The notes: generated by a model from the letters alone, not told the origin. Positions 146 to 59,750 are shown, counted from the first letter of the stretch. The stretch is DNA of 64,000 bases from a virus (IMGVR_UViG_3300029286_003706:14011-78010); one strand, 5' to 3'. Translations and numbers: made by a program.

Positions 146-433
146 TCAAATGTTCCAAAAATCTGAGCTGTATTTACCAATAAGTATATCGCAAGTATTC
201 ATTATAGATTTATAAACCTCCCATACTTCATAAGAATTAGGATCACCAAGATTATGTTCTTGAAAAAATTTCTCTATTCTATCTTTTAATTTTTTATCAC
301 TTATTTCAATAAATTTATAAACAAGTGGACTATTTATATAATATTCTAATTTATCACAGATATCCATTCCTTCTATCCATACTGGTCCGTGATAATTTCT
401 ATTAAATGCCTCAAAAGTTTTAATCTTTCTCAT
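146..433 (-). CDS. Hypothetical protein with capsid-targeting-like leader
   Basis: N-terminus MRKIKTFEAFN matches the leader shared by ~18 ORFs. Confidence 0.6.
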   Translation of the reverse strand: MRKIKTFEAFNRNYHGPVWIEGMDICDKLEYYINSPLVYKFIEISDKKLKDRIEKFFQEHNLGDPNSYEVWEVYKSIMNTCDILIGKYSSDFWNI

Positions 434-450
434 AATTTTAAATTATTTTT

Positions 451-1041
451 TTATTTATTTAACCCGGATTTTAATTTTTTTATTGTTTCTTTATTTCTTT
501 TAATATCAGCAAAAAATGTACTACCTTTCTTTTGTCCACCGTGTAATAATATACCAAATGGTTCTTTACTATCAGATGAAGCTAAAGTATCATCAATATC
601 AATTGGAAGTTCTCTTTCTATAGCTTCTTCAACATTTACAACAACATCACACCATCTTAAATTATATTTGTCAATTAAACTATCTAGTTTTCCACCTTTT
701 GACGCAGTTAATCTAAAATTATTTGGTATATCATTTAATCTATTAACCCAATAATCTAATGATGTAGTGAAACCATAAAATACAGTTTTTGGATTTTTTT
801 TAGCAACTTCTAACCAAGAATCAAAATATGTTTGATTAAAAAAATCACCAGATTCATGTATTCTAAAAAATCTAGGTGGATATGGAAAATAAAATTTAAA
901 AGATTTTTCTATAAGTTTAATTATGTTTTCTTTAGTTCCCATAGATCGTAATAATTTATAATTATTCCAATTTCTTCTTCTTAAATTGGGATATTTTACT
1001 TCATCAAATGCTGCATAACAACGGAATTGACCATAATCCAT
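451..1041 (-). CDS. Gp88-like phage protein, probably 5'-truncated
   Basis: CYA, FRIHESGDFF, FYGFT and NFRLTAS motifs; the N-terminal Cys-containing segment expected before CYA is absent. Confidence 0.65.
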   Translation of the reverse strand: MDYGQFRCYAAFDEVKYPNLRRRNWNNYKLLRSMGTKENIIKLIEKSFKFYFPYPPRFFRIHESGDFFNQTYFDSWLEVAKKNPKTVFYGFTTSLDYWVNRLNDIPNNFRLTASKGGKLDSLIDKYNLRWCDVVVNVEEAIERELPIDIDDTLASSDSKEPFGILLHGGQKKGSTFFADIKRNKETIKKLKSGLNK

Positions 1042-1060
1042 TTGTAAAAATCATAAATAT

Positions 1061-2554: not shown

Positions 2555-2587
2555 AAAAGAAAGGTTGTCAATTGACAACCTTTTTTG
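2553..2587. terminator. Bidirectional intrinsic terminator
   Basis: Palindrome aaggttgtcaattgacaacctt flanked by A and T runs, between convergent genes. Confidence 0.75.
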
Positions 2588-2987
2588 TTTCGCTTTGGAC
2601 AATTAAATCAACATTATCTTCCGGTTTTGGTAATCTAGTTGTTAATTCGGATTTATTAACCAATGAAATTTCAGATAAAAGGGTTATATTTGGATCTTTA
2701 CCAAACATTTTTTCATATAAATATTCAGCACAAAATTGATACCTAAATTTACCATTGAATTCATCTGTTATTTGCAATAATTCTTGATTATTATCGAAAT
2801 ATTTTTCAATATAATCCCTTGTTTGATCCCATTGTTTGAAACTTTTTTCACTAATATGATTTATATCACATACAATTCCAACTAAATGATCAAAAACTTT
2901 ATCAACATATGTGTTATCTTCAAATAAATTATCGGTAGTAACAACAGTTTTATAATTTTCGTTTACAAAATCGTTAAATTTTTTCAT
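2568..2987 (-). CDS. Hypothetical protein with capsid-targeting-like leader
   Basis: Start re-assigned to MKKFNDFVNE at 2987, just downstream of an AATATATA motif. Confidence 0.65.
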   Translation of the reverse strand: MKKFNDFVNENYKTVVTTDNLFEDNTYVDKVFDHLVGIVCDINHISEKSFKQWDQTRDYIEKYFDNNQELLQITDEFNGKFRYQFCAEYLYEKMFGKDPNITLLSEISLVNKSELTTRLPKPEDNVDLIVQSETKKVVN

Positions 2988-3006
2988 ATTGATATATATT
3001 ATTTTT

Positions 3007-4087: not shown

Positions 4088-4522
4088 ATGAAAAGAGAAC
4101 ATAAATGGGATAAGGATGATACTATCATCGCCCTATATTACACAAAATTTGGTATAAAACATCTTCCGGTTAAAGATGAAAAAGATTTAGCTGAAAATAT
4201 TATTGGGTCATCTTTGGATTCACTTAAAATGTTATCCACCACTTTGGGAAAAACACATGATGTGAGTTTTTCAAAAATTCAAAGGGAAGTTGTTGATGAA
4301 TTCAAAAAAATGCAAGAAACTGATTTTCGGGATGTTGTTCTTGAAATCTTTTCTGATACTGAACGAAAAGTTGTTGTTGAAGAAAGAATCAAGGATCGAA
4401 AAGAAAATGAAAAAGAAGAAAAAGCAAAGGAAGAAAAGAAAAAATTGGATTCCATTTTTCGGAAAATGGGGAAAGACCCATCAAAAATGAGGAGTGTTGG
4501 TGTAAGACCTAAAGAATTTTAA
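4088..4522 (+). CDS. Hypothetical early protein
   Basis: TATATTTG at 4057-4064 upstream. Confidence 0.7.
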   Translation: MKREHKWDKDDTIIALYYTKFGIKHLPVKDEKDLAENIIGSSLDSLKMLSTTLGKTHDVSFSKIQREVVDEFKKMQETDFRDVVLEIFSDTERKVVVEERIKDRKENEKEEKAKEEKKKLDSIFRKMGKDPSKMRSVGVRPKEF

Positions 4523-6184
4523 GCTTCCAGAATCATAAATACGATAAATTTTTCTTTCTAACATGATTTCATGTTCGGTTTTATTTGGATCAAAACCATC
4601 ACGAATTAATTTATCTTTTCTAAAATTAAATCTATGTTTTCTAACACCATTCACTACATAATAGTAGTCGGGTGGTGTTTTACTTAGAAATGTAAAACCT
4701 AATTTTTGATATAATTCACCCTGACTCCAAGAACGATCAGTACAACTAATCACTTCTTTTGGATTATAAGTTTTGATGAAATATTTAAATAATTTTTCGG
4801 CACTACCCACTACTGATGTGTTTAATTTACTACAAAATATCAACATTTCATAAACACCATCAGAATTACTTTGTTTCATAAATTTACGTTTCGATCCAAA
4901 AGTCATTAAAGACACCAATTCATCATTGTAAAATAATCCTAATTTAATAGGTGAACCAACAAAACCCTGTAAATGGTTTTTTTCTAGAAAACAACGAACT
5001 AATTTATTATCTATTATTTCTTTTATGATACATTTACGGGCATAAATTTTATTTGGTGTTTTTCCAAGTAAATTTAAGATTCTAGATTTAACAATTTCCT
5101 GTTTAAATACCCAATCATCTTGAAAAATATGTATTAATTTAATATTAATACTTTCTGATAGTTCTGTTTTAATTGAATGATAATTGTTTTCTTTTTCTTT
5201 TTCATTATGCCAATAAACACCATTAAACTCAAACGCCAATTTCAAATCTGGTAAATAAATATCTAATTCATATGGTGAAATTATATTTCTTTTATTTAAT
5301 TGAATTTCATTATTATAATTTTCTTTAATGAAATTTTGTAAATCTTTTTCTTGATTGGAAACTGAATCATTAAATGGATTACATATTATACAATATGGTA
5401 TTTTATATTTATATCTTTGAATTAAATTATTTATTTTTATATCGAAAATAGTTTTACATTTATCACACTTTATTGTATAAACACCTTTATTAAAAGAAAC
5501 TATTTCACAATTATATTTATCTATTGATTTTTTTAATTGTTTATCTTTATAAATATCAGATGTCATATAATTTTCAGAACCATATTTTTCAATATTAGTT
5601 TTTATCATTTTTTCTTTTATTGTGTCAGATTTAATGGGAAAATTTACACCGAATTTTTTAAAATTGGAATTTTTCATTTTTTCTTTAATTTCATTATTTA
5701 AAAAAAATGTATTATTTTTAATTTTCGTTTCTTTAATTTTATTTTTAACTTTATCAGATTTGGATGGATGACCACCATATATATATATACAAGTATCATT
5801 TCTTTTTTGATGATTTAAATAATTTTCATTACCATATTTTTTTAACTTTGTATGTTTAGATTTTTTTATGATATCTTTATTTTGAAAAACATTTTCAGTA
5901 CCATAAATTTCTATATTTGTTAATTTTCTTTTCTCACTTGAACATTTATTTGAACAAGAATAATAATTATATTTTTTAATATTTTTGTTATAATTATAAA
6001 ATGATATAATCTTTTCTTTATTACATACATCACATTTTGCTAAAATTTTAACACCAGATCCTTTAGATAAAATTTCTATGGGAATTTCTATAATATCATT
6101 AAAATTAAAATTATATCCTAATTCTTTATAATATTTATAATTATTTGGATTGATTGTTATTTTTACACTGGTTGTTATTAACAT
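4481..6184 (-). mobile_element. Putative free-standing homing endonuclease (Zn ribbon, KYG repeats, Vsr/PD-(D/E)xK-like domain, conserved C-terminal domain)
   Basis: KCDVC, KYG repeats, ELDIYLPDLKLAFEFNGVYWH; paralogous to 47535 and 49883; directly behind uvsW. Confidence 0.7.
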
Positions 6185-7764: not shown

Positions 7765-8054
7765 GTTCTTATATATAAAACTAAAAGTGTTTTGTTTTTA
7801 TTTTTAAAGGACTCAAATATCGTTTATATCCAAATGATGAACAGAAAATTTTGTTGGGAAAACATTTTGGTTCGGTTCGTTTCGTATACAATTTAGCATT
7901 AGAAACAAAAATGAATGCATATAACGGAAATAAAATAAATTTATCAAGATTTGATTTACAAAAACAAGTGGTGGATTTGAAACAAGATTGTGAGTGGTTA
8001 AAAGAAATACACCAAACATATTAATATATAATAAAAACAAATATTTAAAAAAAA

Positions 8055-14938: not shown

Positions 14939-14957
14939 ATTTTAATATTTTTTATTT

Positions 14958-16760: not shown

Positions 16761-17204
16761 ATGAAAAATCTAAAAACGTTTGAAAGTTTTAACGTTAAAA
16801 AACAAGAACAAAAAGGATTTACAAGTAATATAGAAAATGACACTTTGAAAAATGATAATTTTAGAAAAGTGTTATATACGAGTAAACATATGCAACTTGT
16901 ATTAATGAGTTTAAAACCCGGTGAAGATATTGGAAAAGAAACACATACTAATGTTGATCAATTTTTTAGATTTGAAGCTGGTAATGGTAAATGTATTGTT
17001 AATGAAAATGAATACTTAGTAAATAATGGTGATGTTTTAATAGTACCATGTGGTAGTACACATAATATAATAAATATCGGAAAATCAGATTTAAAAATAT
17101 ACACAATATATACACCACCTAATCATAAAGATGGAATAACATTCGGAACAAAATCCGAAGCATCTAATAGTAAAGAAAAATTTGATGGAATAACAACCGA
17201 ATGA
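16761..17204 (+). CDS. Cupin-domain protein with capsid-targeting-like leader
   Basis: PGEDIGKETH...DQFFRFEAG...GDVLIVPCGSTHNIIN; N-terminus MKNLKTFESFN. Confidence 0.85.
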   Translation: MKNLKTFESFNVKKQEQKGFTSNIENDTLKNDNFRKVLYTSKHMQLVLMSLKPGEDIGKETHTNVDQFFRFEAGNGKCIVNENEYLVNNGDVLIVPCGSTHNIINIGKSDLKIYTIYTPPNHKDGITFGTKSEASNSKEKFDGITTE

Positions 17205-18136
17205 TAACAAAATTTATTCAATACATAAAAGAAAATGATGATTACGATGAAAAACTTGTCAGAATAATGGCTTGGTTATTTATGTCATATGTATATGATA
17301 ATAATGATGGAATGAAAGAATCAAATTGGATTAATGATAACAGAATGGGAATATCTTTTAAATTGGCAATTAAATATTTATCTGAAAATGGTTTTGTTGA
17401 ATTTATAAATGATAAATGGAAAATAACAAAAAAAGGAATAGATGAATTATTTTCATTTTTTAAAATTCCCACAAATAGAGATGAATGGTTGAATTATGAT
17501 AATAGTTGGTTGAAAAAATATGATACTGTTCAATATCCAATTTCTAGGATTCCAACTGAAATATTTGAAAGAGAATTTGAAAAACACACATCAGAAAATA
17601 TTAAATATATACTTGAAAAAAGTGAATATTATGATATTGGTAAATGGTGGTATAAATATCAAAGAGGTACAATAGGTTGGTGGACAAAAATGAACAAATA
17701 TCTTGGTTTAAAAGGAGATTTAATGCCAGATGTTGATTCACTAATTTTATATAGGGGTATTAATTTAAAATGTGGTTCACCAGATAATGAAGAATATTTT
17801 AATAAAGAAATTTGTATTGGAATAAAAAATGGTGAAATTAAAAAAGGTGATAAAATAAAATGTAATAAATCCAGTTGGTCATTATCATCTAGTGTAGCTA
17901 AATCTTTCGCTAGTGGTAAAAAGGGTTTATCGGATCCAATATCAATGAAAGACACCGAAATCGGTATTGTTTTAAAAAATGAATTTAAATCTTCTGAAAT
18001 TTTATTAGATTCGGATTGGGTTAATAATCATAAATTTTTAAAAGATAAATCTGTATTTCCAAGTGAAATGGAGGTAATTATTCAACCAAAAACGAGATAT
18101 GTTGAAATAATTCATATTTTTGATAATAAAAATTAA
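17201..18136 (+). CDS. ADP-ribosyltransferase (R-S-E clade) with leader
   Basis: LYRG, SSWSLSSSVAKSFA, SEMEVII; N-terminus MITKFIQYIKE. Confidence 0.65.
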   Translation: MITKFIQYIKENDDYDEKLVRIMAWLFMSYVYDNNDGMKESNWINDNRMGISFKLAIKYLSENGFVEFINDKWKITKKGIDELFSFFKIPTNRDEWLNYDNSWLKKYDTVQYPISRIPTEIFEREFEKHTSENIKYILEKSEYYDIGKWWYKYQRGTIGWWTKMNKYLGLKGDLMPDVDSLILYRGINLKCGSPDNEEYFNKEICIGIKNGEIKKGDKIKCNKSSWSLSSSVAKSFASGKKGLSDPISMKDTEIGIVLKNEFKSSEILLDSDWVNNHKFLKDKSVFPSEMEVIIQPKTRYVEIIHIFDNKN

Positions 18137-20899: not shown

Positions 20900-21226
20900 T
20901 TAAATCGAAAATTCATCTTCTATTAATCCTTTAAGATTTTTTAAATTTATTTTTAATTCCGGTTCTGATGATTTCAATAAACTTTTGAAGTAAGAAAATG
21001 GTGGTTTTTTCTTACTTAGACTGTCATTTAAGATTTTATTTGTTTTTAGAATATCTAAAACTAATCTATATTTTCTTAGATTTGTTTGATATAATTTTTC
21101 TAATTCATTATAATATATTTCTTGCAACTTTTTCTCTAATGGTTCAAAATCAGATTCCATATCGTAATATTTTTTATCAACGAAATGTCTATCTTCATTC
21201 AAAAAGTCTTTAAATTTAGTTATCAT
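20900..21226 (-). CDS. Hypothetical protein with capsid-targeting-like leader
   Basis: MITKFKDFLNE. Confidence 0.65.
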   Translation of the reverse strand: MITKFKDFLNEDRHFVDKKYYDMESDFEPLEKKLQEIYYNELEKLYQTNLRKYRLVLDILKTNKILNDSLSKKKPPFSYFKSLLKSSEPELKINLKNLKGLIEDEFSI

Positions 21227-21513
21227 TAAGTATAAGTGATTTCAACTACAACTGTTTCATATCCAAAAGTATTATACCATTGACCAGTTACAGTGTCCCA
21301 ATAATTATAGGTTCTACCACCATCGTTTGAACATCTGGAACCAATAATTGGATCTCTAACATAACTAGTAAAAGTATGACCAGAATAATTTTGAAGCATA
21401 TATTGAGTTACAGATGCATCATCACCCCTCATTGGTAATTCTGGAAAATATAAAGTGTTAATATGAAGTGTGTCATCAAAAGCTCTCACCGTTGGACTAT
21501 CTATTGTTGGCAT
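21226..21513 (-). CDS. Hypothetical late protein
   Basis: 95-aa ORF; AATATATA at 21537-21544 (minus strand). Confidence 0.6.
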   Translation of the reverse strand: MPTIDSPTVRAFDDTLHINTLYFPELPMRGDDASVTQYMLQNYSGHTFTSYVRDPIIGSRCSNDGGRTYNYWDTVTGQWYNTFGYETVVVEITYT

Positions 21514-21550
21514 AAATTAATTGATTATTTTTATTGTATATATTAATTTT

Positions 21551-22077: not shown

Positions 22078-22152
22078 ATTTCTATCTTTTTCATTCATTT
22101 TTTTCATACATTATATATTGTTTTTAATAAAAATTTTTAATATATAATATTT

Positions 22153-22701
22153 ATGATAACCAAATTTCAAATATATGAAGCTCAAATTAGAGATTGTATT
22201 GAAAAAACTAAAAAATCTAAATATAAATCTAATCCAGATATAGAATCTTATATTAATAAAAGTGCTAATCGAAAATTTGAAGATGATTCACCTTTATTGT
22301 ATACTGTTTATTTGGAAGATTATGATATAAATTTAAATTTTGAATACTATGATACTCCATCTCATAGTATAAAAGAGAAAATAAAAAATAGAACATCACT
22401 CAAAAGTGTATCAGAATTTAATGATGTTTTTGAAAAAACTATAAAAACTATAATACCAGATAAATTAGGAATTGGAATAGATAAAATTGATAAAAAAGGT
22501 TGTTATGCTCTTTATTTAATGGAAAATAAATTTTTTATTTTAATAGATATTGATCCAAATTCTTTAATCGAAGGTTATTTTATTGATAAATATGGTAGAA
22601 AAACTACAAAAAAATATCATTCCTTTGTTATCACAATACACGATAAATCTAGCATTGATAGATATTATAAAATGTTTGATATAGATGATAGTAATTTTTA
22701 A
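22153..22701 (+). CDS. Hypothetical protein with capsid-targeting-like leader
   Basis: MITKFQIYE; AATATATA at 22139-22146. Confidence 0.65.
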   Translation: MITKFQIYEAQIRDCIEKTKKSKYKSNPDIESYINKSANRKFEDDSPLLYTVYLEDYDINLNFEYYDTPSHSIKEKIKNRTSLKSVSEFNDVFEKTIKTIIPDKLGIGIDKIDKKGCYALYLMENKFFILIDIDPNSLIEGYFIDKYGRKTTKKYHSFVITIHDKSSIDRYYKMFDIDDSNF

Positions 22702-23007: not shown

Positions 23008-23015
23008 ACTAAAAA

Positions 23016-23249
23016 TTACGTTGTTATTACCGAAACTTGTTGTTTTGCTAAATTTATGGTGTTATCTGTTGCATGTAGTGGGTCTTTATAATCATTATTT
23101 ACAGTAGAAACATTGGCAACAATTTCTTCTTGTTGTTTCTTTCTGGATTTTTTCCTACCTTTCTTCGTAAATTCTTTAAAAGTCTGAGTTTTACCACCAC
23201 CCCAATTACTTTCAACGTTTTCTAATAAAAATTCTTTATAATTTTTCAT
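23016..23249 (-). CDS. Small protein with capsid-targeting-like leader
   Basis: Start re-assigned to MKNYKEFLLE at 23249; AATATATA at 23255-23262. Confidence 0.6.
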   Translation of the reverse strand: MKNYKEFLLENVESNWGGGKTQTFKEFTKKGRKKSRKKQQEEIVANVSTVNNDYKDPLHATDNTINLAKQQVSVITT

Positions 23250-34431: not shown

Positions 34432-35001
34432 ATGAAAAACTTCAATCAATTTTTATTCGAAGAAATAATATCAGATCCAAAATCACTTTTAGATAGTATT
34501 AATGCTAAAAAAGTATCTACTAATATTTTTAATATAAATATTAATGATTTTAAGGATATAGAAGATTTGTTTGAAGATGAAAAATTTAATAAAGAATTGA
34601 TTAATGGTGAATTTAAAAAAGATAATTTAGAAAGTACAAAAGAATATGAAACTTTTTTAAAAAATACCTTAAATGTTAAATATTTTTTAATATTTAAAGA
34701 TAATCAAAATGAATTGGAAAAACCAAAATATATTTTCATTCAAATAAAAAAAGATCAAAAGTGGGGAACAATACAATTTTATAAAGTTAATTCGAATATG
34801 AAGAATTTCTATGATTTATTAACGAATAAGAAAATAGAAATAAAATCAAATGGAAAAAGTTACATTTATGTTACTACAAATGGTGGATTTGATTGGACAC
34901 TTCAAAATTTACAAAATCAGGATTCATCATTTAAAAATATAATGAGGAATGAAGATATTAATAAAATACTTCAAAATTCCATTGTTCAAGAAATAGATTA
35001 A
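34432..35001 (+). CDS. Hypothetical protein with capsid-targeting-like leader
   Basis: MKNFNQFLFEE. Confidence 0.65.
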   Translation: MKNFNQFLFEEIISDPKSLLDSINAKKVSTNIFNININDFKDIEDLFEDEKFNKELINGEFKKDNLESTKEYETFLKNTLNVKYFLIFKDNQNELEKPKYIFIQIKKDQKWGTIQFYKVNSNMKNFYDLLTNKKIEIKSNGKSYIYVTTNGGFDWTLQNLQNQDSSFKNIMRNEDINKILQNSIVQEID

Positions 35002-36927: not shown

Positions 36928-37902
36928 ATGATAAAAAAATTCCATTTATTTGAAAAACAACTGCAACTTTTTGATTTACCAAAAACAGATAAGGATGTTA
37001 TACACCAAGTCATAACCAAACATCAAACAAAACCAGTACCAGTAAATATTAAAAGGGGAAATAAATTACAAGATGATTTGGATAAGTGGACGAGTGAAGA
37101 AATTATAAACAAAAAAATTTATGATTATTTGAAAAATAGTGATTTTGGTGGTGATTATATGGATTTATTATCGAAAAATCTTGAAGTTTTATGTGATTAC
37201 GTGGAAGAAAAACCAGAAATGATTTCTAATAGTTATAAAAATTTACCAGAATGGCCAAAAAATGAACGGGGAAAAGAAAAAACTTTATCAGAAATAATAA
37301 GGTCTGATGATTATTGGTTTTGTCATGTAGATAATTACGTTGAAGATGAAGACGATTTTAAAAATTATTTTTTGGAATCCACAAAAAATAATTTATATCA
37401 ACTTTATGACGTAGAATATTTATATGATTTGAAAGATGCTATTTATGATTCAAAAGACCCATATAGATTGAAAATTTATAGGGCTATAACATTACCAAAG
37501 AATGTCGAAGAGTTGGACGATTATAATGGTGTCGGTGTTTATTGGACGTATGACAAAGAAAAAGCGGAGGCTTATTGGTCCAAACATAATAGAGAATTTA
37601 TTTTAGAAGGATGGGTTTATTCTAATGGAATTGATTGGGAAGAAACGGTTTATAAGTCTATTTATATTATGAAAGATGAAAGGGAAATTTTTTTATATAA
37701 TGAAACACCAATTGAATTGACTTCGGTTTATATGAAAAGTATATATAATGAATTTAGAGAAATTAATTCAGTAATTGATGAAGAAAAACGGATTATTAAA
37801 TTATTTGGTTTGAAAAGCGATCAAATTTCAAATTATTTAATAAACAAACACAAAAATATGTCTACGATTATTTTTGATGAACCAATCTGGGTGAAAGCAT
37901 GA
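36928..37902 (+). CDS. ADP-ribosyltransferase-fold protein with leader
   Basis: IYRAI, GVYWT...AEAY, DEREI; N-terminus MIKKFHLFE. Confidence 0.55.
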   Translation: MIKKFHLFEKQLQLFDLPKTDKDVIHQVITKHQTKPVPVNIKRGNKLQDDLDKWTSEEIINKKIYDYLKNSDFGGDYMDLLSKNLEVLCDYVEEKPEMISNSYKNLPEWPKNERGKEKTLSEIIRSDDYWFCHVDNYVEDEDDFKNYFLESTKNNLYQLYDVEYLYDLKDAIYDSKDPYRLKIYRAITLPKNVEELDDYNGVGVYWTYDKEKAEAYWSKHNREFILEGWVYSNGIDWEETVYKSIYIMKDEREIFLYNETPIELTSVYMKSIYNEFREINSVIDEEKRIIKLFGLKSDQISNYLINKHKNMSTIIFDEPIWVKA

Positions 37903-40133: not shown

Positions 40134-40286
40134 ATGAAAAAAGTTTTTAGTTTTTCAATAGATGAAAACATTATAAAAAATCTTGATAAATTCTGTAAAG
40201 ATGGTTTGATAACAAAATCAAAATTGATTAATAAAATTATACAAGATTTTATTGAAAAAGAAAATAAGAAAAATGATAGTAAGTGA
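40134..40286 (+). CDS. Ribbon-helix-helix (CopG-like) protein, absent from the ORF track
   Basis: MKKVFSFSIDENIIKNLDKFC...TKSKLINKIIQDFI, 50 aa, overlapping the endonuclease start. Confidence 0.7.
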   Translation: MKKVFSFSIDENIIKNLDKFCKDGLITKSKLINKIIQDFIEKENKKNDSK

Positions 40287-47422: not shown

Positions 47423-47534
47423 AATATGTATTTTTTAGAATTATGATACAAAATTACAAATGTTCAATGATAAAAAAAAATTTTAATGAATAAAAAACTT
47501 TCAACTTTATTAATAAAAAAAATATATACATAAA

Positions 47535-49070: not shown

Positions 49071-49830
49071 CCATTCTAAACCAAGAAACTGTCGTTTGAC
49101 CCTTTATTTCTTCGTTAACTTTATCTACCATAGACTGACCACCACTTATAATATCTTGAGCATTATAGTTGAAATTACCCGGCATATTAAAATTAAAACG
49201 ACCAATCTGTTCGCCCATTCTAACTCTACACAACCCAATACAATATCTTTTAAACATTTCAAAATCAAACAATTCTTCTTCTTGAATTCTAACCCACACT
49301 TCTAACATATGATTGGATTCACCGGGATATGATTCTAAACTACCCAAAAAATTAAGTTGTTTGTTTATTGGGTTAAAACTAAATTTAACAGTATCTTTTG
49401 TCATTTTATTTATTTCATCGGAAAAATAACTGATTACTGAACGATAGAGTGCGAGGTCCCCCGCAGTGGTTACAAAGCTAGTTAAGAAAGGCTGATTTGT
49501 AACCCCCAAATTAATAGATAGATTTGGTGCTTGAATACCAATTCTAAATAAAGATAAATCATTTATTTTTATAATTCTTGTTATATTTTCAACTTCTTCT
49601 GGCATGATTAAATATTTGAATCTAGAATATGTGTCCCTCAACAACATGTCTTTTTTCATAAAATAATAAAATTTTTGAAGAGAAAATTGATAATTTTTAT
49701 AGAAATATTCTAGGGCTAATTCTTTCACTACACGTTTTACTTCTTTATCAACCAAAACTTTTGGTAGTGCACCAGAAAACGTCAAGTCGGCTTGTATGAT
49801 GTCTATTAATTGTTCAATTGTTATTGACAT
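49063..49830 (-). CDS. Neck/head-completion protein (T4 gp13-like)
   Basis: 255 aa; ALEYFY, FSFNPINKQL, KRYC...G..IGRFNFNMPGNFNYN..DI...G pattern; AATATATA upstream. Confidence 0.65.
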   Translation of the reverse strand: MSITIEQLIDIIQADLTFSGALPKVLVDKEVKRVVKELALEYFYKNYQFSLQKFYYFMKKDMLLRDTYSRFKYLIMPEEVENITRIIKINDLSLFRIGIQAPNLSINLGVTNQPFLTSFVTTAGDLALYRSVISYFSDEINKMTKDTVKFSFNPINKQLNFLGSLESYPGESNHMLEVWVRIQEEELFDFEMFKRYCIGLCRVRMGEQIGRFNFNMPGNFNYNAQDIISGGQSMVDKVNEEIKGQTTVSWFRMAR

Positions 49831-49882
49831 AAACTTTAAATGTTTTTATTTATATATTAATTTTATAAAGACAAAAACTCAA

Positions 49883-51745
49883 ATGATATTAGATAAGGAA
49901 GTAAAAATAACAATTAATCCAAAAGTAGATAGGACATATTTCAAATTGGATTATTATGACATTAATATTGTGAAAGATCCATTTCAAATTTTTATTAAAA
50001 TGGAAGATTTAAATAAAAGTTCTAGGATTAAGATAAATGTAAAATGTGATGTTTGTAATAATGAAAAAATTATTACTTATTTATCATATAATGAAAATAT
50101 AAACAATTATGGTGTTTATGCTTGTTCTCCAAAATGTGCATCTTTTAAAAATAAATTAACAAATAAAGAAAAATATGGTGATGAAAATTTCAATAATAGG
50201 GAAAAAAGTAAGATAACAAATTTAGAAAAATATGGTGTTGATAATGTTCAAAAATATAAAGATATAAAAAATAAGTCTGTTGATACCATTAAAAATAGTT
50301 ATGGTTATGAAGTTATAATGGATAAAGTAAGAAGTAAAGTAAAAGAAAAATATGGAAAAGATCATGCATTACAAGTTGATGAATTATATAAAAAATCTGA
50401 AAATACCAAATTAGAAAAATATGGTGATAAAAATTATAATAATAGAGAATTGTGTAAAAAGACATGTTTAGAAAAATCAGAAATAGAAAAAAACAAAACA
50501 GTTGAAAAAAGAAAAGAAACATGCTTAGAAAGATATAATAAAGAATATTCTATTACTTCTGATATTGTAAAAAATAAAATATTAAAAATATTTAATGAAA
50601 AATATGGTGGAAATACACCATATGCTGATAAGAATTTAAGATTAAAATCTGCTGAAAAATATACTAATGAACATATAAATTATATTAAAGATAATATTAA
50701 AGAATTTCAATGTGAATATATTAATCATAAAAATAAAAATAAAAATAATTGTAATATTGAATATACTTTAAAATGTATTAGGACTAATAAATTATTTACA
50801 ATATCTTATTCAAATTTAAGAATACGAATTTTGAAAAAATTAGAAATTTCACCTTTTTTTAGAGATGAATATGGTAAATCTAATATGGAAAAAGATTTGT
50901 ATAATTTCATTAAAGAAAATTATACAGAAAACATTTTATTAAACAAAAAAGATATAATTAAACCATTAGAAATAGATATTTATCTTCCAGATTTAAAATT
51001 AGCATTTGAATTTAATGGATTATTTTGGCATAACGAAATAAATAAATCAAATGATTATCATTTAGAAAAAACAGAATTTTGTGAACAACAAGGAATACAT
51101 CTGATACATATTTATGAGGATGATTGGATATATAAACAAGAAATAGTTAAATCCAGAATTCTTAATTTACTTGGTAAAACACCAAACAAAATTTATGCTA
51201 GAAAATGTATCATAAAAGAAATTACTGATAATAAATTAGTTTACGAATTTTTAAATACAAATCATCAACAAGGGTTTATTATTTCAAAAATTAAAATAGG
51301 ATTATTTTACGAAAATGAATTAGTATCTTTAATGATTTTTGGAAATCAAAGAATATCAATGGAAACAAAAAGTAAAGAAAACACTTATGAAATATTAAGA
51401 TTTTGTAGTAAATTAAATACATCAGTTATTGGTGGATCTGAAAAATTATTTAAATATTTTATCGAAAATTATAATCCAAAAGAAGTGATTAGTTATGCGG
51501 ATAGATCGTGGAGTCAAGGTGAATTGTATAAAAAATTAAAATTCAATTTCGTTGGTAAAACCCCATCAAATTATTATTATATTGTTGATGGTATTAAAAA
51601 ATACAAATTCGGTTTTAGAAAAGATAAATTAATTCGTGATGGTTTTGATCCAACTAAAACTGAACATGAAATAATGTTGGAAAGAAATATATTTAGAATT
51701 TACGATAGTGGAAGCTTAAAATTCATTTGGAAATTTAATATATAA
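49883..51745 (+). mobile_element. Putative homing endonuclease, paralogue of 4481 and 47535
   Basis: Start re-assigned to MILDKEVKITINP; VKCDVC, EKYG repeats, EIDIYLPDLKLAFEFNGLFWH. Confidence 0.7.
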
Positions 51746-51764: not shown

Positions 51765-52382
51765 ATGAAATTCGGACTACTTAAATTTTATGATTATTTG
51801 AAAACGAATGAAGCCGTAAAAACCCAAGACAATAACGAAGGTATTTTAGTTATAGTAGATGTTCAGGGTGAATTTGACGAATATACACCACAGGGTTTTG
51901 AACAAAATATAATTAAATATTGTGAAGAATTTCCAAAGGATGAAGATGGTGGTATAAAAGGTGTTTATCAAATATGGGATTCTAATAAAGCAACCGGATT
52001 TACATATACTTTTCCTAATCAAATATTAACTGTTAGAAAGAATTATGGAACAAAATTCAATTCAAATTTAAAAAAAATATCAACGTCTTTACCACAAGAC
52101 ACTAAAGAAGGTAAGTTGTTTAGATTTAAAAACACAAATAAATATTTATGTAAAATAAATAATAATCATAAATGGTTCTATGTTAATGAAGATTTATATA
52201 ATTTATATCAAAAATTAAAAGGTAAAAAAGTAATTATGATAGGTGGTGCAGATGCCGAATGTCTTCAGGATGTGTATGTTTCAATGAAATCATTTGGTGT
52301 TATACCTGTTTATAATCATAATTATATCTATAATGCATCGATGAATGATGATATGATTGCAACAGATAAAAAAAAATTATAA
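51765..52382 (+). CDS. Isochorismatase/nicotinamidase-like cysteine hydrolase with leader
   Basis: LVIVDVQ, RKNYG, GGADAECL (D-K-C triad); N-terminus ...LKFYDYLKTNE. Confidence 0.65.
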   Translation: MKFGLLKFYDYLKTNEAVKTQDNNEGILVIVDVQGEFDEYTPQGFEQNIIKYCEEFPKDEDGGIKGVYQIWDSNKATGFTYTFPNQILTVRKNYGTKFNSNLKKISTSLPQDTKEGKLFRFKNTNKYLCKINNNHKWFYVNEDLYNLYQKLKGKKVIMIGGADAECLQDVYVSMKSFGVIPVYNHNYIYNASMNDDMIATDKKKL

Positions 52383-52384: not shown

Positions 52385-52810
52385 ATGATAATCAAAAAAT
52401 ATAAAGATTTTATAAATGAATCTTCCAATGATGATTTTGTTTTATTATATCACGGTTCTAGTAAAGAAAACGAAGAAAATTTATTAAAAAATGGTTGGCA
52501 ACCAAATAAAGTATTATCTGGATCGAATCAAGGAAACCCAAATTATTTATATTTGGCCCTATCACCAGAATCAGCTTGTTATTATGCAGCTTGTAAAGAT
52601 AATGATAAAAATGTTTTAGAAGTAAGAATACCAAAATCTTATTTAAAAGTTGATCCACATGATGGAATGTATCATGGTAATGTTGATATGGAATTAGAAC
52701 ATGGTGTCTCATTAGTTTGTTTTAAAAAATTACCATCTTGGGCATTTAACAAATATACTGGTGATTTTAAAGTAACGGGATGTGATGATTTCTTTGATGA
52801 TTATGATTAA
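52385..52810 (+). CDS. ADP-ribosyltransferase-fold protein (H-Y type) with leader
   Basis: LYHGS...L.NG...LYLA.SPESACYYA...VLEVRI; N-terminus MIIKKYKDFINE. Confidence 0.65.
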   Translation: MIIKKYKDFINESSNDDFVLLYHGSSKENEENLLKNGWQPNKVLSGSNQGNPNYLYLALSPESACYYAACKDNDKNVLEVRIPKSYLKVDPHDGMYHGNVDMELEHGVSLVCFKKLPSWAFNKYTGDFKVTGCDDFFDDYD

Positions 52811-54246: not shown

Positions 54247-54714
54247 TTATTTTATATTATCACCCCCGAAATCTTCACTTTTACTCTTTTGATTTGGTTG
54301 AAATTCTATATCATCATCATCAATTAATCTCGTCCATTCTTCAAGTTCCGGGTAAAAAAATAAATAATATTTATCTTCTTGCAAGGAACTTACTATATTA
54401 TCTATGACATCATTAAATAAAATTTCAAATTGTCCATTACCGTAATGATATAATTCAGAATAGATTGGTAATGTGAAATTTTCCATTTCTTTAACTGTTT
54501 CCCAATTATTACCACCCTTTTCAATACTTATATTCACATCACCTGTTATATCCCCCCTGACAACCCAAGTAGTATTTTTGTTTGGAAATTCTGGTTCTGA
54601 TTCACGATCTATAAAATTTATATCATCAGTTGGATCGATTGGTTCGTCATCATCAACATCATAATTTGTATACCCCAATTCTTCTTTTATAAATTGATTG
54701 AAATTTTTTATCAT
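54247..54714 (-). CDS. Acidic protein with capsid-targeting-like leader
   Basis: MIKNFNQFIKEE. Confidence 0.65.
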   Translation of the reverse strand: MIKNFNQFIKEELGYTNYDVDDDEPIDPTDDINFIDRESEPEFPNKNTTWVVRGDITGDVNISIEKGGNNWETVKEMENFTLPIYSELYHYGNGQFEILFNDVIDNIVSSLQEDKYYLFFYPELEEWTRLIDDDDIEFQPNQKSKSEDFGGDNIK

Positions 54715-54731: not shown

Positions 54732-55478
54732 TCATTGGACAAATATTTTATCATATAATCCATTTTTTACGGCTATCAATTTTCCTATAAAACCCTCATT
54801 TCTTAATTTTTTAAATACTAAATTTTCTATTGAAAATTCCCCCTTCTCTTTTATTGCACTAGCTCTAGCTTCAGATAATTTTTTCTTTGTTGCTTTCGCA
54901 ATTTTGAAATATTTCATTAATTCATCTGGGTCTGTTGTTTCTTCCAGATATTTTTCCAATTCTGTAATTTCATACACATAAGAATTATATTTGGGATTTA
55001 TATCATCATCTGTTACGGTTGGTTTTTCGTGTTTTGGTTTGTTGATCCATTTGTTATTTAATAATGAAAAACGACCATTTTTTGGTCTGACTTCAGTAGA
55101 ATCTTGAATATACAATTCCACTTCGTGACCCCTTAATGTAATATTATGTCTTTCATTCCATTGAAATTTTTCACCCTCAACCGCTTTAGTAATCAAATCT
55201 TTATCTTCTCCCAAATCGGAATAATCAATCAAAACATGGACATCTAAATCTGAGGTTTTGGTATAGTTGTAATTTGAAATACTGCCAGTTAATTCAATAT
55301 CTATTATTTTTGTATCCAATTCCAAACTTTCATAAAAATCCCTAGCTATTTTAATTAATTTCTTTCTTATTCCTTCATCAAGTTTATCATTTTCCCAATA
55401 AAGAGGACATAATTTTTTATGATATGTTAAAACATTTTCACCTTCTTTTATTAACCAATTTTTATATTTTAATGTCAT
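54732..55478 (-). CDS. Pol-beta superfamily nucleotidyltransferase with leader
   Basis: TGSISNYNY...SDLDVHV (GS...DxD), EVELY; N-terminus MTLKYKNWLIKE. Confidence 0.8.
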   Translation of the reverse strand: MTLKYKNWLIKEGENVLTYHKKLCPLYWENDKLDEGIRKKLIKIARDFYESLELDTKIIDIELTGSISNYNYTKTSDLDVHVLIDYSDLGEDKDLITKAVEGEKFQWNERHNITLRGHEVELYIQDSTEVRPKNGRFSLLNNKWINKPKHEKPTVTDDDINPKYNSYVYEITELEKYLEETTDPDELMKYFKIAKATKKKLSEARASAIKEKGEFSIENLVFKKLRNEGFIGKLIAVKNGLYDKIFVQ

Positions 55479-55500
55479 AATTCTATATATTATAATTTAA

Positions 55501-55944
55501 TTACATTTTCATTGTAACTGATACATCATTAGCACCTGTTCCAATTATACCACCCCCACCACCACCAGTATTACCATTAATATTCGCTGAAGTATATCCT
55601 TGATCAGCTGATTTATAAAGTCCCGGATAAGCACCCATTATTTGTTTTTTGCTGACTGTAACAATACTATTATTTTTATCTAAAACACCCGGTTTATTAA
55701 AATCAGAGTTTTCAACATTTAATGTTACTTCTATATTATTGTTTGTTAAAAATGATAAAATTTTACCAGATGCTTCTACTTTATCATTTGGTTTATTTGA
55801 ATCAGGTACATACCAGAACATAATAGAATCACCAATTCCCGGTTCTTTATCTGTTGATTGAGTTACATTCATTGGTGCACTATTAGCTGTGTTCCCAGCA
55901 TTGATTTGATCTTGATAACTTTCAAATGTTTTTAAATACTTCAT
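55501..55944 (-). CDS. Hypothetical protein with capsid-targeting-like leader
   Basis: MKYLKTFESY; Gly-rich tail. Confidence 0.65.
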   Translation of the reverse strand: MKYLKTFESYQDQINAGNTANSAPMNVTQSTDKEPGIGDSIMFWYVPDSNKPNDKVEASGKILSFLTNNNIEVTLNVENSDFNKPGVLDKNNSIVTVSKKQIMGAYPGLYKSADQGYTSANINGNTGGGGGGIIGTGANDVSVTMKM

Positions 55945-56429
55945 TGTATGGTATTATTATTTTGTGGTTGTGGTTGTGATTCAATATTTTGTGATTCATC
56001 GTTCTGTATTTCTGGTTTAACACCAGTATCTATTTTAATACCATGTTCATCAGCCCAATCATATATTCTATTAAAATATCTATTGGATTTTTTTTCATCG
56101 TATTCACCCGACTGATCCATAACTTCCTTTATATCATACCAACAGGTTTCACTTATTTTTTGTAATTCGGATCTCTTTTCTGTTATTCTATCTTTGTATT
56201 TTTTTACAAATTCATTGAAATCAATAGATTTTGATTGATATTCACCCCAAATGTCCTTAATATCAATTGTCATAAACCATTGAATATCAGGACTATCATA
56301 ACCAACATCATTAATAATAAACAGTGTTGGTTTATTTGGATCTTGACTTTGAACGTCTTGACTTTGAGGTTGATTTTCAGTTTCTTCCTCTTTATTTTCA
56401 TTTATAAATTGAAAAAATGTTTTAAGCAT
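55941..56429 (-). CDS. Hypothetical protein with capsid-targeting-like leader
   Basis: MLKTFFQFINE. Confidence 0.65.
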   Translation of the reverse strand: MLKTFFQFINENKEEETENQPQSQDVQSQDPNKPTLFIINDVGYDSPDIQWFMTIDIKDIWGEYQSKSIDFNEFVKKYKDRITEKRSELQKISETCWYDIKEVMDQSGEYDEKKSNRYFNRIYDWADEHGIKIDTGVKPEIQNDESQNIESQPQPQNNNTIQ

Positions 56430-56497
56430 ATTTTTATCATATCCTAATATTTTTCTTATATATTAAAAATGAAAAACAAAAATAATATATAAACATA

Positions 56498-57538
56498 ATG
56501 ACAAACTTATTTACATATCAAGATTTTTTAAATGAATTAAAAATTTCTAAAGACTATAATGAAATTAAAAATTTAGAATCAACTTATTTTGTTATTTATA
56601 AGGAAAACATATATTTTTTTGATTGGGGATTGAAAGATTACGTTGAAAAATTTAAAGATTTTTATAAATATTTGTTTGATGATAATGTCATTCCCATTTC
56701 TGGTATGATTAAATATAAATTATCAAATATAACAGATTTTGATTCAGCTAATTCTTTTTTTGACTATTATTTGGTTGATAATCCTAAGATAATATCTGGT
56801 CAATTTTATTCAAATTATTACAATAAAAATATCCCAAAAGATAGTGTGGTTGCTAAATTTAATATAAATATATATTATGAAATAAAAATATCAGATATTT
56901 TAAATAAATTTATGAAATTTTTACCCGGATTGGAATATTTTGAAATTGAAGATGTGGTTTATCATCGAGATGAAATTTTAAAAAAATACGGGAAAAATTT
57001 TAATAAACAAATAAAATTACCAGATAAAATTTATCATGGAACGTCATCACAATTTATTGAAGATATTTTGAAAAAGGGGTTAGAACCTAAAAAAGAAAAT
57101 ACTGTTTTTTCAGTGAAACATAATAAATATGTTTATTTTACAACATCATTCAAAACTGCTGAACGATATGCTAAAATGTCAACAGCGAGGGATTTTAATT
57201 TAAAAACCACACAAGTTATATTGGAAATAGATTCAAATAGAATAGATAAAGATAAAATTATTTTCGATTTTGATTTTTATAATAAATTCGTGGGGAAAGG
57301 AAATGATACATATGATAATCAATTAAAAAATTTGGGAATACCACCATCCGGTGATGAATTATTATATACTAAATTTTCAAATAAAAATATGGGTGGTTTA
57401 TATAAAAAATTTGGTTATAACGGAATTATTTTACCAACAAAAATAAATAAAATATATTATTTTACTAAAAATAGAGAATGGGAAAAATTTACAATTCCGG
57501 AATTTAAAGAATATATGAAAAAGGAAAAAATGTCATGA
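56498..57538 (+). CDS. ADP-ribosyltransferase-fold protein (H-Y type, Tpt1/Arr-like) with leader
   Basis: IYHGTS...ILKKGL.P...VYFTTSFKTAERYA...VILEID; N-terminus MTNLFTYQDFLNE. Confidence 0.7.
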   Translation: MTNLFTYQDFLNELKISKDYNEIKNLESTYFVIYKENIYFFDWGLKDYVEKFKDFYKYLFDDNVIPISGMIKYKLSNITDFDSANSFFDYYLVDNPKIISGQFYSNYYNKNIPKDSVVAKFNINIYYEIKISDILNKFMKFLPGLEYFEIEDVVYHRDEILKKYGKNFNKQIKLPDKIYHGTSSQFIEDILKKGLEPKKENTVFSVKHNKYVYFTTSFKTAERYAKMSTARDFNLKTTQVILEIDSNRIDKDKIIFDFDFYNKFVGKGNDTYDNQLKNLGIPPSGDELLYTKFSNKNMGGLYKKFGYNGIILPTKINKIYYFTKNREWEKFTIPEFKEYMKKEKMS

Positions 57539-59082
57539 AAAATATTTTTACATATCAAGATTTTTTATTGGAAATGTATAATCCAATTAAATTCAAACTT
57601 CTTTTGAGTGATGAAATTACTGATATTATTAGTAAAATAGATTTACCAATTTCAGATATAATTTTAAATTTTAAAGGGGAATTGGATGTTTCTTATATCG
57701 ATACTACTTCTGTTCCGGAAATGATTAGTTATTATAGATTAGATAATTATAAAAAATCACTTTTGAAATTAGATGATGTTAAAATTGTAAATAGAGATTT
57801 ATGGAATAGTAAATATAGGGAACAAATGAGATTGGGAAAATTTATAAATCAAATATTAGCAGAAACCAAATCTTCTATTGGTCCTGTTGAAATTGAAAAT
57901 TTTGTAAATCAATATAAAGGAATATTTAGTTCTATCAGATTTGGTTTCCAAAATTTCGATATGGTTTACGGAGAAAATTTAAGAAAATTTTATTATGAAA
58001 AAACATATATGACTGGTGGTGGTTTTTTAAATAATGGTTGTATGAGACATGATTATTGTCAAAAATATCTAAATATTTATGTTGAAAATCCAGATAAGAT
58101 TAATTTATTGATTATGAGAAATCCGAAAAATAAATTGAAAATTGATGGTAAAGCATTAATTTGGAATTTAGATAGCCATAAAGGTAAAAAACTAATGGAT
58201 TTACCCTATTGTACTAAAAATTATATGATGACAATATTTCAGGAATATGCAATGAAAAAAGGATGGTATTATACAAAAATTGAAGAAGGTAAAGATAATT
58301 ATAGATTTTTAAACATATTTGATTCGAAAGGAAATAAAACAGATGAAGCATTTGAAGTAAATGTTACACCTGAAGAATATGAATATTACCCACATGTTGA
58401 TTTGTTGAAATATTATAATCCATATACAGGAAATTTAACAAATGATAAAAGTGTAATCAAAGATGACGAAGATTATATTATTTTGGACCAAGATAATGGA
58501 AGTTATACCACAGTAAAAGATACTTTGAATGAATCGTTTGAAAATAAAGAATTTAAAGATTGGTTTGGTGAAAGTAAAATTGTCAAGGGTGAAAAACCAT
58601 TGTTAGTTTATCATTTTAATAAAAAAGATAAAATTGACCCTTTTAATAAAAATGAAATATATTTTACTGATGATAAGAAATTTGGAAAAAGATATTTGGG
58701 GTTTTGTAAAGAACATAAAGCTTATCTAAAAATCATCAATCCATTTATTTGTACGAATAAAAATTTAAAATTAATATTTGAAGAATATCACCCTTATAAT
58801 AAAGAATATTGGTCGAGAGAATTTAATGATGAAAATTCTAATAAAAATAGTAATAAGGAATGTTATAGATCATATGGTTATGGAAAATCTGGATATGATG
58901 GTAAAATTTTAAATTATATATATAATTATAATCAATCTAATTTAAAAGAAAGAAAAATAGTTCATTCTATAATAACAAAATTGAAATATGATGGTGTTAT
59001 AATTCCTTATGATTGGGATGGTAAATATGGAACAATAAAATCATTTGTTGTTTTCGATAAAAATCAAATTTGGGAACTATGA
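57535..59082 (+). CDS. Two-domain protein: unknown domain plus C-terminal ART-like (polyvalent-protein type) domain, with leader
   Basis: MKNIFTYQDFLLE; FKDWFGESK...KPLLVYH...IYFTD...YLKIINPF...YDGVII...VVFDKNQI. Confidence 0.65.
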   Translation: MKNIFTYQDFLLEMYNPIKFKLLLSDEITDIISKIDLPISDIILNFKGELDVSYIDTTSVPEMISYYRLDNYKKSLLKLDDVKIVNRDLWNSKYREQMRLGKFINQILAETKSSIGPVEIENFVNQYKGIFSSIRFGFQNFDMVYGENLRKFYYEKTYMTGGGFLNNGCMRHDYCQKYLNIYVENPDKINLLIMRNPKNKLKIDGKALIWNLDSHKGKKLMDLPYCTKNYMMTIFQEYAMKKGWYYTKIEEGKDNYRFLNIFDSKGNKTDEAFEVNVTPEEYEYYPHVDLLKYYNPYTGNLTNDKSVIKDDEDYIILDQDNGSYTTVKDTLNESFENKEFKDWFGESKIVKGEKPLLVYHFNKKDKIDPFNKNEIYFTDDKKFGKRYLGFCKEHKAYLKIINPFICTNKNLKLIFEEYHPYNKEYWSREFNDENSNKNSNKECYRSYGYGKSGYDGKILNYIYNYNQSNLKERKIVHSIITKLKYDGVIIPYDWDGKYGTIKSFVVFDKNQIWEL

Positions 59083-59750
59083 TAACTAATTTTAAAATAT
59101 TTGAGAATATATCAAATAAATATCCGGAAGAATTTATTGAAGCTGTTAATAATACACCGGGGGCTGAAATTATATCAAGTGGAATAAAATTGGACATATC
59201 ACGTTATCAAAAACCAGAACAATCTGGTGGTTGGAGTGTAAGAACAGGTGTATTTTTCTTACCGGAAATTAAATCACCATATTCTAGATATTATAGAAAT
59301 AAAAAAAGTTATGGTGGTAAAGAATATGTAACAGGTAAAACAATCATAAAAAATCCATATATTATAAAAGCTGGAACTGGTGGAATTGGACCCGAAAAAG
59401 CTTTTATAAAAATTGTTGGAAAACAGAAACATGAAGAAATGTTACATGATATATTTAAAATTCAAGGTTGGGGGAGAACAAAATACCAAAAGGAAGAAGA
59501 TGTTACTGAATTTTTAGATAAATATGATGGTGATGTAGATAGTGCTTATGATATTGTTCGATGGAGTGATGAGGGGAATCGTATGAGATACGCCTTACAA
59601 GAACATATAATTGCCCACACTTTAAGAGATGCTGGTTATGATTCTATATTGAGTTATTCAAAAAGTGATGGTAAACCAAGATTATCCGAATTGTTTGATT
59701 TGAGACAAAAACAATATCCCGGTGAAACTAATTTTGAATTTTACGAATAA
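59079..59750 (+). CDS. Divergent ART-like protein with leader
   Basis: Start at MITNFKIFE (ATGA overlap); GVFF...IIKNPYII...AGYDSIL resembles the preceding domain. Confidence 0.5.
   Translation: MITNFKIFENISNKYPEEFIEAVNNTPGAEIISSGIKLDISRYQKPEQSGGWSVRTGVFFLPEIKSPYSRYYRNKKSYGGKEYVTGKTIIKNPYIIKAGTGGIGPEKAFIKIVGKQKHEEMLHDIFKIQGWGRTKYQKEEDVTEFLDKYDGDVDSAYDIVRWSDEGNRMRYALQEHIIAHTLRDAGYDSILSYSKSDGKPRLSELFDLRQKQYPGETNFEFYE

Follow-up and report, generated by a model that had tools for sequence, protein, structure and literature searches.

A T4-like capsid-targeting leader, predicted from sequence, on many unrelated proteins of a lake virus related to the Mahaphages

We analyzed bases 14011-78010 of a 78,010-bp IMG/VR virus record (IMGVR_UViG_3300029286_003706), a stretch of 64,000 nucleotides (nt) referred to below as the window, in which 18 open reading frames (ORFs) begin with similar short N-terminal leaders that resemble the capsid-targeting sequence of phage T4. 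The guanine-plus-cytosine (GC) content is 25%, the CheckV completeness of the record is 11%, which implies a genome of ~700 kb, and the public runs that contain the record are lake-water metagenomes, with no RNA run listed among them. Genes were called with a crude ORF caller (longest ATG ORF, greedy, non-overlapping), which gave 118 ORFs on the whole contig, so a few start codons may be wrong. The 18 N-termini quoted in an earlier reading of the window, which was made without database searches (the sequence-only reading), all translate as written at their positions and strands, and each is the first ATG of a called ORF. The leader ORFs are dispersed over the entire 64 kb (146-59750) and are listed below with lengths in amino acids (aa); "strict" refers to a pattern defined further on, and a slash within a motif marks a junction.

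146..433, minus strand, 95-aa ORF, leader MRKIKTFE of the K-T-F-E type; no Pfam or PHROG match
2568..2987, minus strand, 139-aa ORF, MKKFNDFVNE, strict; an ATATATA ends 5 nt before the ATG
16761..17204, plus strand, 147-aa cupin, MKNLKTFE; 17-residue extension on a cellular-type 132-aa core (Pfam Cupin_2, 3e-13)
17201..18136, plus strand, 311-aa ORF, MITKFIQYIKE, strict; its start overlaps the end of the cupin gene
20900..21226, minus strand, 108-aa ORF, MITKFKDFLNE, strict
22153..22701, plus strand, 182-aa ORF, MITKFQIYE, short I-x-E form; an ATATATA ends 6 nt before the ATG
23016..23249, minus strand, 77-aa ORF, MKNYKEFLLE, strict, in the register of T4 MKTYQEFIAE
34432..35001, plus strand, 189-aa ORF, MKNFNQFLFEE, strict; leader also present on the LR756501 orthologue
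36928..37902, plus strand, 324-aa ORF, MIKKFHLFE, short L-x-E form
51765..52382, plus strand, 205-aa ORF, long leader MKFGLLKFYDYLKTNE; in LR756501 its 60% identical orthologue begins with MKVIKFSDYLKE
52385..52810, plus strand, 141-aa ORF, MIIKKYKDFINE, strict; weak PARP-like match (PF00644, E 0.0014, below cut-off)
54247..54714, minus strand, 155-aa ORF, MIKNFNQFIKEE, strict
54732..55478, minus strand, 248-aa ORF, MTLKYKNWLIKE; weak nucleotidyltransferase match
55501..55944, minus strand, 147-aa ORF, MKYLKTFE, K-T-F-E type
55941..56429, minus strand, 162-aa ORF, MLKTFFQFINE, strict, followed by an acidic, polar linker
56498..57538, plus strand, 346-aa ORF, MTNLFTYQDFLNE, strict; PARP/Tpt1-like ADP-ribosyltransferase-type domain (PF01885, 26.3 bits; PF00644, 25.7 bits)
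57535..59082, plus strand, 515-aa ORF, MKNIFTYQDFLLE, strict; 11-member family, with a T-L-N-E/S junction before an extra C-terminal module
59079..59750, plus strand, 223-aa ORF, MITNFKIFE, I-x-E form

Of the 18, only the 56498 ORF had a functional match in PHROGs, a weak one to RNA 2'-phosphotransferase. The core of the 57535 ORF is possibly GNAT-like: VIA-align of its structural model gives GNAT folds at Z ~6.5, a weak lead, and Foldseek with the same model found no match at E <= 0.001.

The closest relatives of the contig are two huge phage genomes of the Mahaphage clade, LR756501 (735 kb) and LR756502 (642 kb), whose predicted hosts are Bacteroidetes (PMC7162821). A 572-aa protein of the window (14958-16676, minus strand) is 64% identical to its LR756501 counterpart and 43% to that in LR756502, ~28% identical to Lak megaphage proteins, and has more distant matches in the cultured Flavobacteriia jumbo phages PTm1 and pT24. 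LR756501 has homologues of 43 of the 118 contig ORFs, mostly syntenic with its 435-545-kb region; identity to the relatives is 48-65% over the large conserved proteins and 30-65% over all 43 shared proteins. Megablast of 12 kb of the window against a phage collection gave no match. Shine-Dalgarno signals are weak, and the closest cellular homologues of the cupin come from metagenome-assembled genomes of Chitinophagaceae type, both of which agree with a Bacteroidetes host.

Because fitting a pattern to our own data was to be avoided, the strict pattern, [FYW]xx[FYW][ILV]xE starting within the first 9 residues, was derived from T4 IpII and IpIII alone. It is found in 10 of the 18 leaders (2987-, 17201+, 21226-, 23249-, 34432+, 52385+, 54714-, 56429-, 56498+ and 57535+). 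Over the whole contig, 12 of 118 genes fit, against 0.31 expected from the internal frequency in the same proteome. The composition-matched shuffle that the sequence-only reading had proposed as a check (residues 2-16, 1000 shuffles, window) gave 10 observed matches against 0.23 expected, with a maximum of 3. Four further leaders (433-, 16761+, 55944- and 59079+) are of the [ILFYW]-K-x-F-E type, for which 0.05 are expected, and those at 22153+, 36928+, 51765+ and 55478- are looser variants. A broad pattern is matched by 25 of the 118 genes; from its frequency at internal Met residues, 6.7 would be expected. The strict pattern was counted in other phages as follows.

LR756501, GC 32%: 44 of 1009 genes, 2-3 expected
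LR756502, first 400 kb, GC 31%: 18 of 580, 1.8 expected
T4: 4 of 259, 0.3-0.6 expected
Lak-A1 (TAG read as Gln), GC 26%: 1 of 617, ~1 expected
PTm1, GC 30%: 1 of 310, 0.3-0.8 expected

The four T4 matches are IpII, IpIII, gp61.1 and one non-annotated start, in keeping with the earlier statement that T4 has few such proteins (3-4 under the same strict test). T4 gp61.1 (AF158101 18966-19130), a 54-aa hypothetical protein, begins MKTFKEFIKE and so fits the capsid-targeting pattern. A motif no commoner than AT-rich codon bias predicts would have spoken against the sequence-only reading; the leaders far exceed the shuffles, and the AT-rich Lak-A1 and PTm1 have no excess. The shuffles and the cross-genome counts together indicate that the excess of leaders is real, is no by-product of AT-richness and is specific to one lineage. 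Tagged genes amount to ~15-20% of contig genes (18-25 in 78 kb), ~8-15% in LR756501 (~80-150 in 735 kb, again dispersed over the entire genome) and 1% in T4.

Aligned on the motif, the leaders give the consensus M-[IL]-K-[KN]-[YF]-x-[EQD]-[FY]-[ILV]-[NK]-E. Phe and Tyr stand in for each other (codons TTT, TTC, TAT and TAC), the same holds for Ile, Leu and Val (ATA, TTA, GTA and others), Glu is encoded in both ways, and the offset of the motif from Met ranges from 3 to 8. The 18 window leaders have at most 29 of 36 nucleotides in common and differ at synonymous sites; they are no DNA repeats. The residue interchange, the synonymous variation and the variable offset indicate that selection acts on the peptide. 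The T4 tag with which the leaders had been compared is correctly quoted, both IpII and IpIII (AF158101) starting MKTYQEFIAE. By suppressor analysis of the IpIII tag, targeting depends mainly on residues 4 and 7, and processing on 8 and 10; the prohead protease gp21 cleaves after L/I-x-E (PMC9026906). The four positions conserved in the leaders are these same T4 positions, 4 and 7 for targeting and 8 and 10 for processing: the leaders have aromatic residues at 4 and 7, I, L or V at 8 and Glu at 10, in some cases displaced by a few residues with the spacing kept (10 strict, 8 variants).

It is also evident that the leader is joined to different bodies, as had been claimed. When 101 leader proteins of the contig and LR756501 are deprived of their first 20 residues, they fall into 86 BLAST clusters. 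In the cupin at 16761, the core is ~65-70% identical to 132-aa Bacteroidota cupins, whose start coincides exactly with the end of the phage extension; other phage-contig copies of this cupin, some on 328-365-kb contigs, bear different extensions ending in LNE/S, LYE/S or IKE/S, and some cellular copies have lipoprotein signals in place of the leader. The 57535 family has 11 members in the contig and LR756501, of which some paralogues start at F-I-S-P-K-L and others have a leader of 14-36 residues ahead of it. The LR756501 homologue of the 54732..55478 ORF has an extra N-terminal domain, and the leader still stands at its extreme N-terminus. Most leader proteins (85-90%) have no Pfam family. 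The families that were found are RimK-type ATP-grasp, DeoC, cupin, radical SAM, methyltransferase, PARP/Tpt1-like, nucleotidyltransferase and Ig; no replication or structural Pfam family was matched among the leader proteins. A 905-aa multi-module protein encoded 4.5-7.2 kb before the window (G000:C1:6796-9513, minus strand) has duplicated modules, repeated K-M-N-E/S-P-D and S-L-N-E/S-P-D junctions and a leader-like C-terminus (I-I-T-K-F-Q-D-F-E). From these junctions, both this protein and the 57535 ORF would fit cargo polyproteins cut by a protease.

The gp21-like prohead protease that the sequence-only reading had proposed to look for is absent from the contig and was found in LR756501, LR756502 and IMG/VR orthologues. 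The head module of LR756501 follows the T4 gene order, with Portal_T4 (236 bits), an 807-aa protease-scaffold protein and a Gp23-type capsid protein (83 bits). The gp21-type protease occupies residues 1 to ~175 of the 807-aa ORF (Pfam S77, 24 bits, below cut-off); in BLASTP it is 26% identical to T4 gp21 over 149 residues (E 3e-7), and the motifs NRNxRxY, GExxHP and VSSRxxG align. His77 and Ser132/133 are invariant among 45 protease orthologues from IMG/VR, 38 of which match PF03420 (S77) and 28 Peptidase_S80. An AlphaFold2 (AF2) model of the protease domain (pLDDT 69), for which the Lak-A1 and PTm1 rows were left out of the alignment, is closest in PDB to T4 gp21 (5JBL; E 2.4e-7, TM 0.58-0.67), with herpesvirus assemblins next. 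Phmmer with the LR756501 protease domain gave no match in PDB, and a profile of the whole protease-scaffold matched only a designed coiled coil there. The S77 proteases of Lak-A1 and PTm1 (58 and 46 bits) are also fused to long C-terminal regions.

The remainder of the 807-aa protein, coiled-coil-like in the profile search, contains 13 repeats of 14 residues in tandem, all of which have Y-x-E-Y-I-A-E or something close to it and so match the strict leader pattern. The LR756502 scaffold has 11 motif copies, and 9-16 copies are found in every complete orthologue among the 80 IMG/VR loci examined of 411 relatives found. Of the 1260 genes in these 80 head-proximal loci, 30 are leader ORFs, where 3.5 would be expected. 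In Lak-A1 and PTm1, [ILV]-x-E sites are numerous, but there is neither a tandem array of the motif nor a leader excess. The scaffold array and the leader expansion thus co-occur among the few lineages sampled. The position before Glu is mostly N or K in the leaders and Ala in both the scaffold repeat and the T4 tag. Three other LR756501 proteins are of note. A 178-aa prohead protease paralogue (11314-11850, minus strand) has its His/Ser motifs replaced (GELGYP, FRPRAAG), ends in DPYGEENW and resembles the diverged protease paralogue of SPN3US (PMC5694885); a 1691-aa protein (21458-26533, minus strand) has seven copies of F-V-K-Y-[IL]-I-E with a period of ~58-61 residues; and a small-scaffold-like 207-aa protein (619760-620383, plus strand) has three copies of Y-x-E-Y-[ILV]-A-E with a 14-residue period. 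A second motif, D-P-[YF]-G-E-E(-x-W), occurs in 90 of 1009 LR756501 proteins (e.g., 5130-, 132555+, 338419+ and 474929+), often directly after the leader and also at internal or C-terminal positions; none was found on this contig.

Many leader genes have a promoter-like context. An ATATATA lies within 35 nt upstream of 10 of the 18, 7 others closely follow the preceding gene, and 433- has no motif, in line with the earlier statement that most leaders sit behind such a motif or in operons. The portal, protease-scaffold and capsid genes of LR756501 also have an ATATATA, 20-25 nt upstream. Leader genes are preceded by this motif more often than other genes (odds ratio 3.5, P = 4e-7), with a weak trend in the same direction on the contig. 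The further statement that no leader stands directly behind TAnnTTTG is roughly true; the depletion of this motif before leader genes is not significant, and the avoidance of host-type promoters is thus unsupported. A sharper box, (T)TTAATATATA(G), also given as TTTAATATATA(G) or TTTAATATATAG, stops 4-6 nt short of the ATG; as TTTAATATATA(G), at 4-5 nt, it precedes 63 LR756501 genes and 10 contig genes, many of which encode leader-like N-termini; in LR756501 the spacing from box to ATG is bimodal, at 5 nt and ~20 nt. Its sites in the window are:

2988-3000, sharp box
7765-7777, sharp box
22140-22152, sharp box
23250-23262, sharp box
34419-34431, sharp box
36915-36927, sharp box
47522-47534, sharp box
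55479-55491, sharp box
56485-56497, sharp box

If the box is a -10-like element, the messenger RNAs would be leaderless or nearly so. A box ending 4-5 nt before the ATG and the many leader-like N-termini behind it suggest cassettes of promoter, leader and body with near-leaderless transcripts.

Auxiliary enzymes are encoded among the leader genes, namely an RtcB-type RNA ligase (24098-25522, plus strand; PHROG E 3e-107), a ribose-phosphate pyrophosphokinase (39092-40033, minus strand; Pfam E 3.5e-42) and a radical-SAM-like protein (42646-43569, minus strand; 25.9 bits, below cut-off). The large ORFs at 4481-6184 (minus strand), 47535-49070 (plus strand) and 49796-51745 (plus strand) match HNH/homing-endonuclease PHROG families (best E 1e-117) and, together with 40273-41415 (plus strand), have an N-terminal domain in common with one protein of LR756501, as if mobile endonuclease genes had spread in a burst. 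The ORFs at 13487-14938 (minus strand, 483 aa) and 14958-16676 (the 572-aa protein above) match the C- and N-terminal halves, respectively, of one 1094-aa LR756501 protein (phrog_29329). PTm1 likewise has two ORFs for the equivalent of the 1094-aa protein, adjoining neck and head-completion genes, and the pair in the window reflects either the splitting of a gene or a difference between lineages. Together, the region 13487-16676 and the 1388-aa ORF at 9305-13471 probably form a structural module of the virion; sequence searches of PDB with the 572-aa protein and with the 1388-aa protein yielded no useful match.

Four other explanations of the leader were considered. The least credible, to which we give almost no weight, is that the N-termini are a chance product of AT-rich codon usage, which at 25% GC favors K, N, I, F and Y codons; it was rejected, since composition-matched shuffles yield 0.23 matches where 10 are observed, and since there is no excess in Lak-A1 and PTm1, at 26% and 30% GC, and a clear one in relatives at 31-32% GC. 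It is also improbable that the first codons are a feature of the mRNA or DNA, serving initiation or promoter escape in a promoter class with leaderless or near-leaderless transcripts, and that the peptide itself has no function. In LR756501, 29% of the genes with a close box have strict leaders against 6% of the others, as this explanation would predict; however, 77% of the strict leader genes there have no close box, and several leaders of the window begin within operons, at start codons that overlap a stop codon. Moreover, the conservation is physico-chemical, with common synonymous changes and a variable register, the motif also occurs inside proteins as scaffold repeats, and Lak-A1 lacks an excess at a similar base composition.

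Two explanations keep the peptide functional but place its function outside the prohead. The leader might be a cleavable pro-peptide or degradation tag that controls toxic enzymes in the infected cell and is cut by a phage or host protease with no packaging involved. Such a role would suit a leader ending in a protease-type site and several tagged proteins that resemble host-modifying enzymes (ADP-ribosyltransferase-like, nucleotidyltransferase-like) and may need restraint. It is similarly improbable, given that gp21-family proteases are assembled and active inside proheads in T4 (PMC9026906, PMC5694885), that the protease here is covalently fused to scaffold, and that an N-terminal helix of 10 residues could hardly inhibit dozens of unrelated folds. 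The strongest competitor, although still clearly a minority view, takes the leader as an address or docking tag for another target, such as a compartment built by the phage, a factory for replication or translation, a chaperone, or a shared modifying enzyme to which the tag serves as recognition site, as with ribosomally synthesized and post-translationally modified peptides (RiPPs), and its likeness to T4 as convergent. For capsid cargo the tagged proteins are very numerous, and the window contains one radical-SAM-like gene, below cut-off. But the conserved positions are exactly those mapped for targeting and gp21 processing in T4, the tandem motif in a protease-linked scaffold is found only in lineages with a leader excess, and the leader genes are scattered over the window and LR756501 and do not appear to cluster beside one enzyme gene.

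The T4 proteins IpI, IpII, IpIII and Alt have the same kind of N-terminal tag of ~10 residues, with aromatics at 4 and 7, I, L or V at 8 and Glu at 10, and in both systems it is attached to unrelated bodies including ADP-ribosyltransferase-type enzymes; the ADP-ribosyltransferase-like cargo predicted here recalls T4 Alt. The relatives of the contig also have the gp21-fold protease, T4-type portal and capsid protein in the T4 order. Unlike T4 with its 3-4 tagged genes, there are 18-25 in the 78 kb of the contig and ~80-150 in the 735-kb relative; the protease of the relatives is fused to a scaffold with 9-16 tandem motif copies; P2 is mostly N or K and not A; and many tagged genes stand 4-5 nt behind a fixed promoter-like box. 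The predicted host belongs to Bacteroidota, the genome to a larger size class, and the system here is known from sequence alone. The differences from the T4 tag and gp21 are the scale, the protease-scaffold fusion with repeats, the promoter cassette, and the host phylum and genome size class. The ejection (E) proteins of phiKZ, 201phi2-1 and SPN3US are similar in that dozens of head proteins, many trimmed after Glu by a gp21-related (S80) protease, are delivered to the host (PMC5694885, PMC9026906), which is predicted here. These phages differ in having S/A/G-x-E sites, mostly propeptides of >100 residues without a shared short tag, and 8-19 processed proteins (PMC9026906, PMC5694885), whereas every strict leader here has I, L or V at P3, and leader length is 8-16 residues. 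Polyvalent proteins of phages and conjugative elements (Iyer et al. 2017, cited in PMC7824862) link several modules in one chain, of ADP-ribosyltransferase, GNAT or ParB-like type, and are thought to be injected with DNA. The 905-aa protein and the C-terminal module of the 57535 ORF fit this description; unlike the polyvalent proteins so described, the cargo here is mostly single-domain, each with its own leader, and the module junctions carry x-N-E/S.

The shared N-terminus is thus probably a T4-type capsid-targeting propeptide used on a much larger scale. The capsid-tag interpretation in the sequence-only reading is partly supported. Its likeness to T4 has independent computational evidence in its favor, namely the four positions, the protease and head genes of close relatives, the scaffold motif, the addition of leaders to otherwise leaderless bodies and the promoter-like motif found before head genes as well; the avoidance of host-type promoters has no statistical support. 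As in T4, the leader helix would dock on the scaffold core during head assembly, so that closure of the shell would trap the attached protein inside. The protease would then cut after the Glu of [ILV]-x-E in both the scaffold repeats and the leaders; the scaffold peptides would exit, and the freed cargo would remain in the head. This cargo would comprise ADP-ribosyltransferase-like, nucleotidyltransferase-like, cupin and possibly acyltransferase-like enzymes together with many orphans, and multi-module proteins with internal x-N-E/S junctions may likewise be cut into separate effectors. Entering the Bacteroidota host with the DNA, the cargo could act before phage gene expression.

Several observations weigh against this interpretation. 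Eight of the 18 leaders deviate from the strict pattern, and the K-T-F-E type has no I, L or V at P3. No match to Peptidase_S77 (PF03420), Gp23, Portal_T4 or scaffold was found on the 78-kb contig, an absence that is expected of ~11% of a genome, and the head machinery is deduced from relatives with 48-65% identity in large conserved proteins. A matrix of the full 14-residue repeat fails to recover the window leaders (3 against 1.2, 99th percentile); the leader is therefore not claimed to be a copy of the repeat, and the likeness is restricted to the four-position pattern. The ATATATA also stands before helicase and homing-endonuclease genes and need not mark late genes. In LR756501, strict leaders are five times commoner on close-box genes than on other genes, which may reflect some RNA-level constraint on the first codons. 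Packaging, cleavage and injection in this lineage are predicted from sequence comparison, and the implied ~100 or more cargo protein species exceed anything demonstrated for a phage head.

We found no description in the literature of a capsid-targeting tag in Mahaphage, Lak or other huge phages and no cultured member of the lineage on record, and the GenBank annotation of PTm1 marks no virion proteins. A wider proposal, offered tentatively and with distinctly less confidence than the role of the leader itself, is that in the largest known phages, the 640-735-kb Mahaphage lineage and its many lake relatives, about a tenth of the genes, ~100 or more proteins, may encode head cargo, arranged as cassettes of near-leaderless promoter, leader and body in which the leader imitates one unit of the protease-fused scaffold. 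If true, protein delivery by this lineage would be far larger than any described for a bacterial virus. The fusion of the protease to a scaffold with tag-like tandem repeats also suggests a mode of recognition for the T4 tag, which is not explained in the T4 papers examined, and the leader system could serve for engineered protein packaging. If the interpretation is right, one short motif would sort ~10% of the proteomes of these huge phages, which have hundreds of genes without known function, into pre-made takeover and counter-defence effectors, and would offer a route to such effectors in metagenomes from sequence only.

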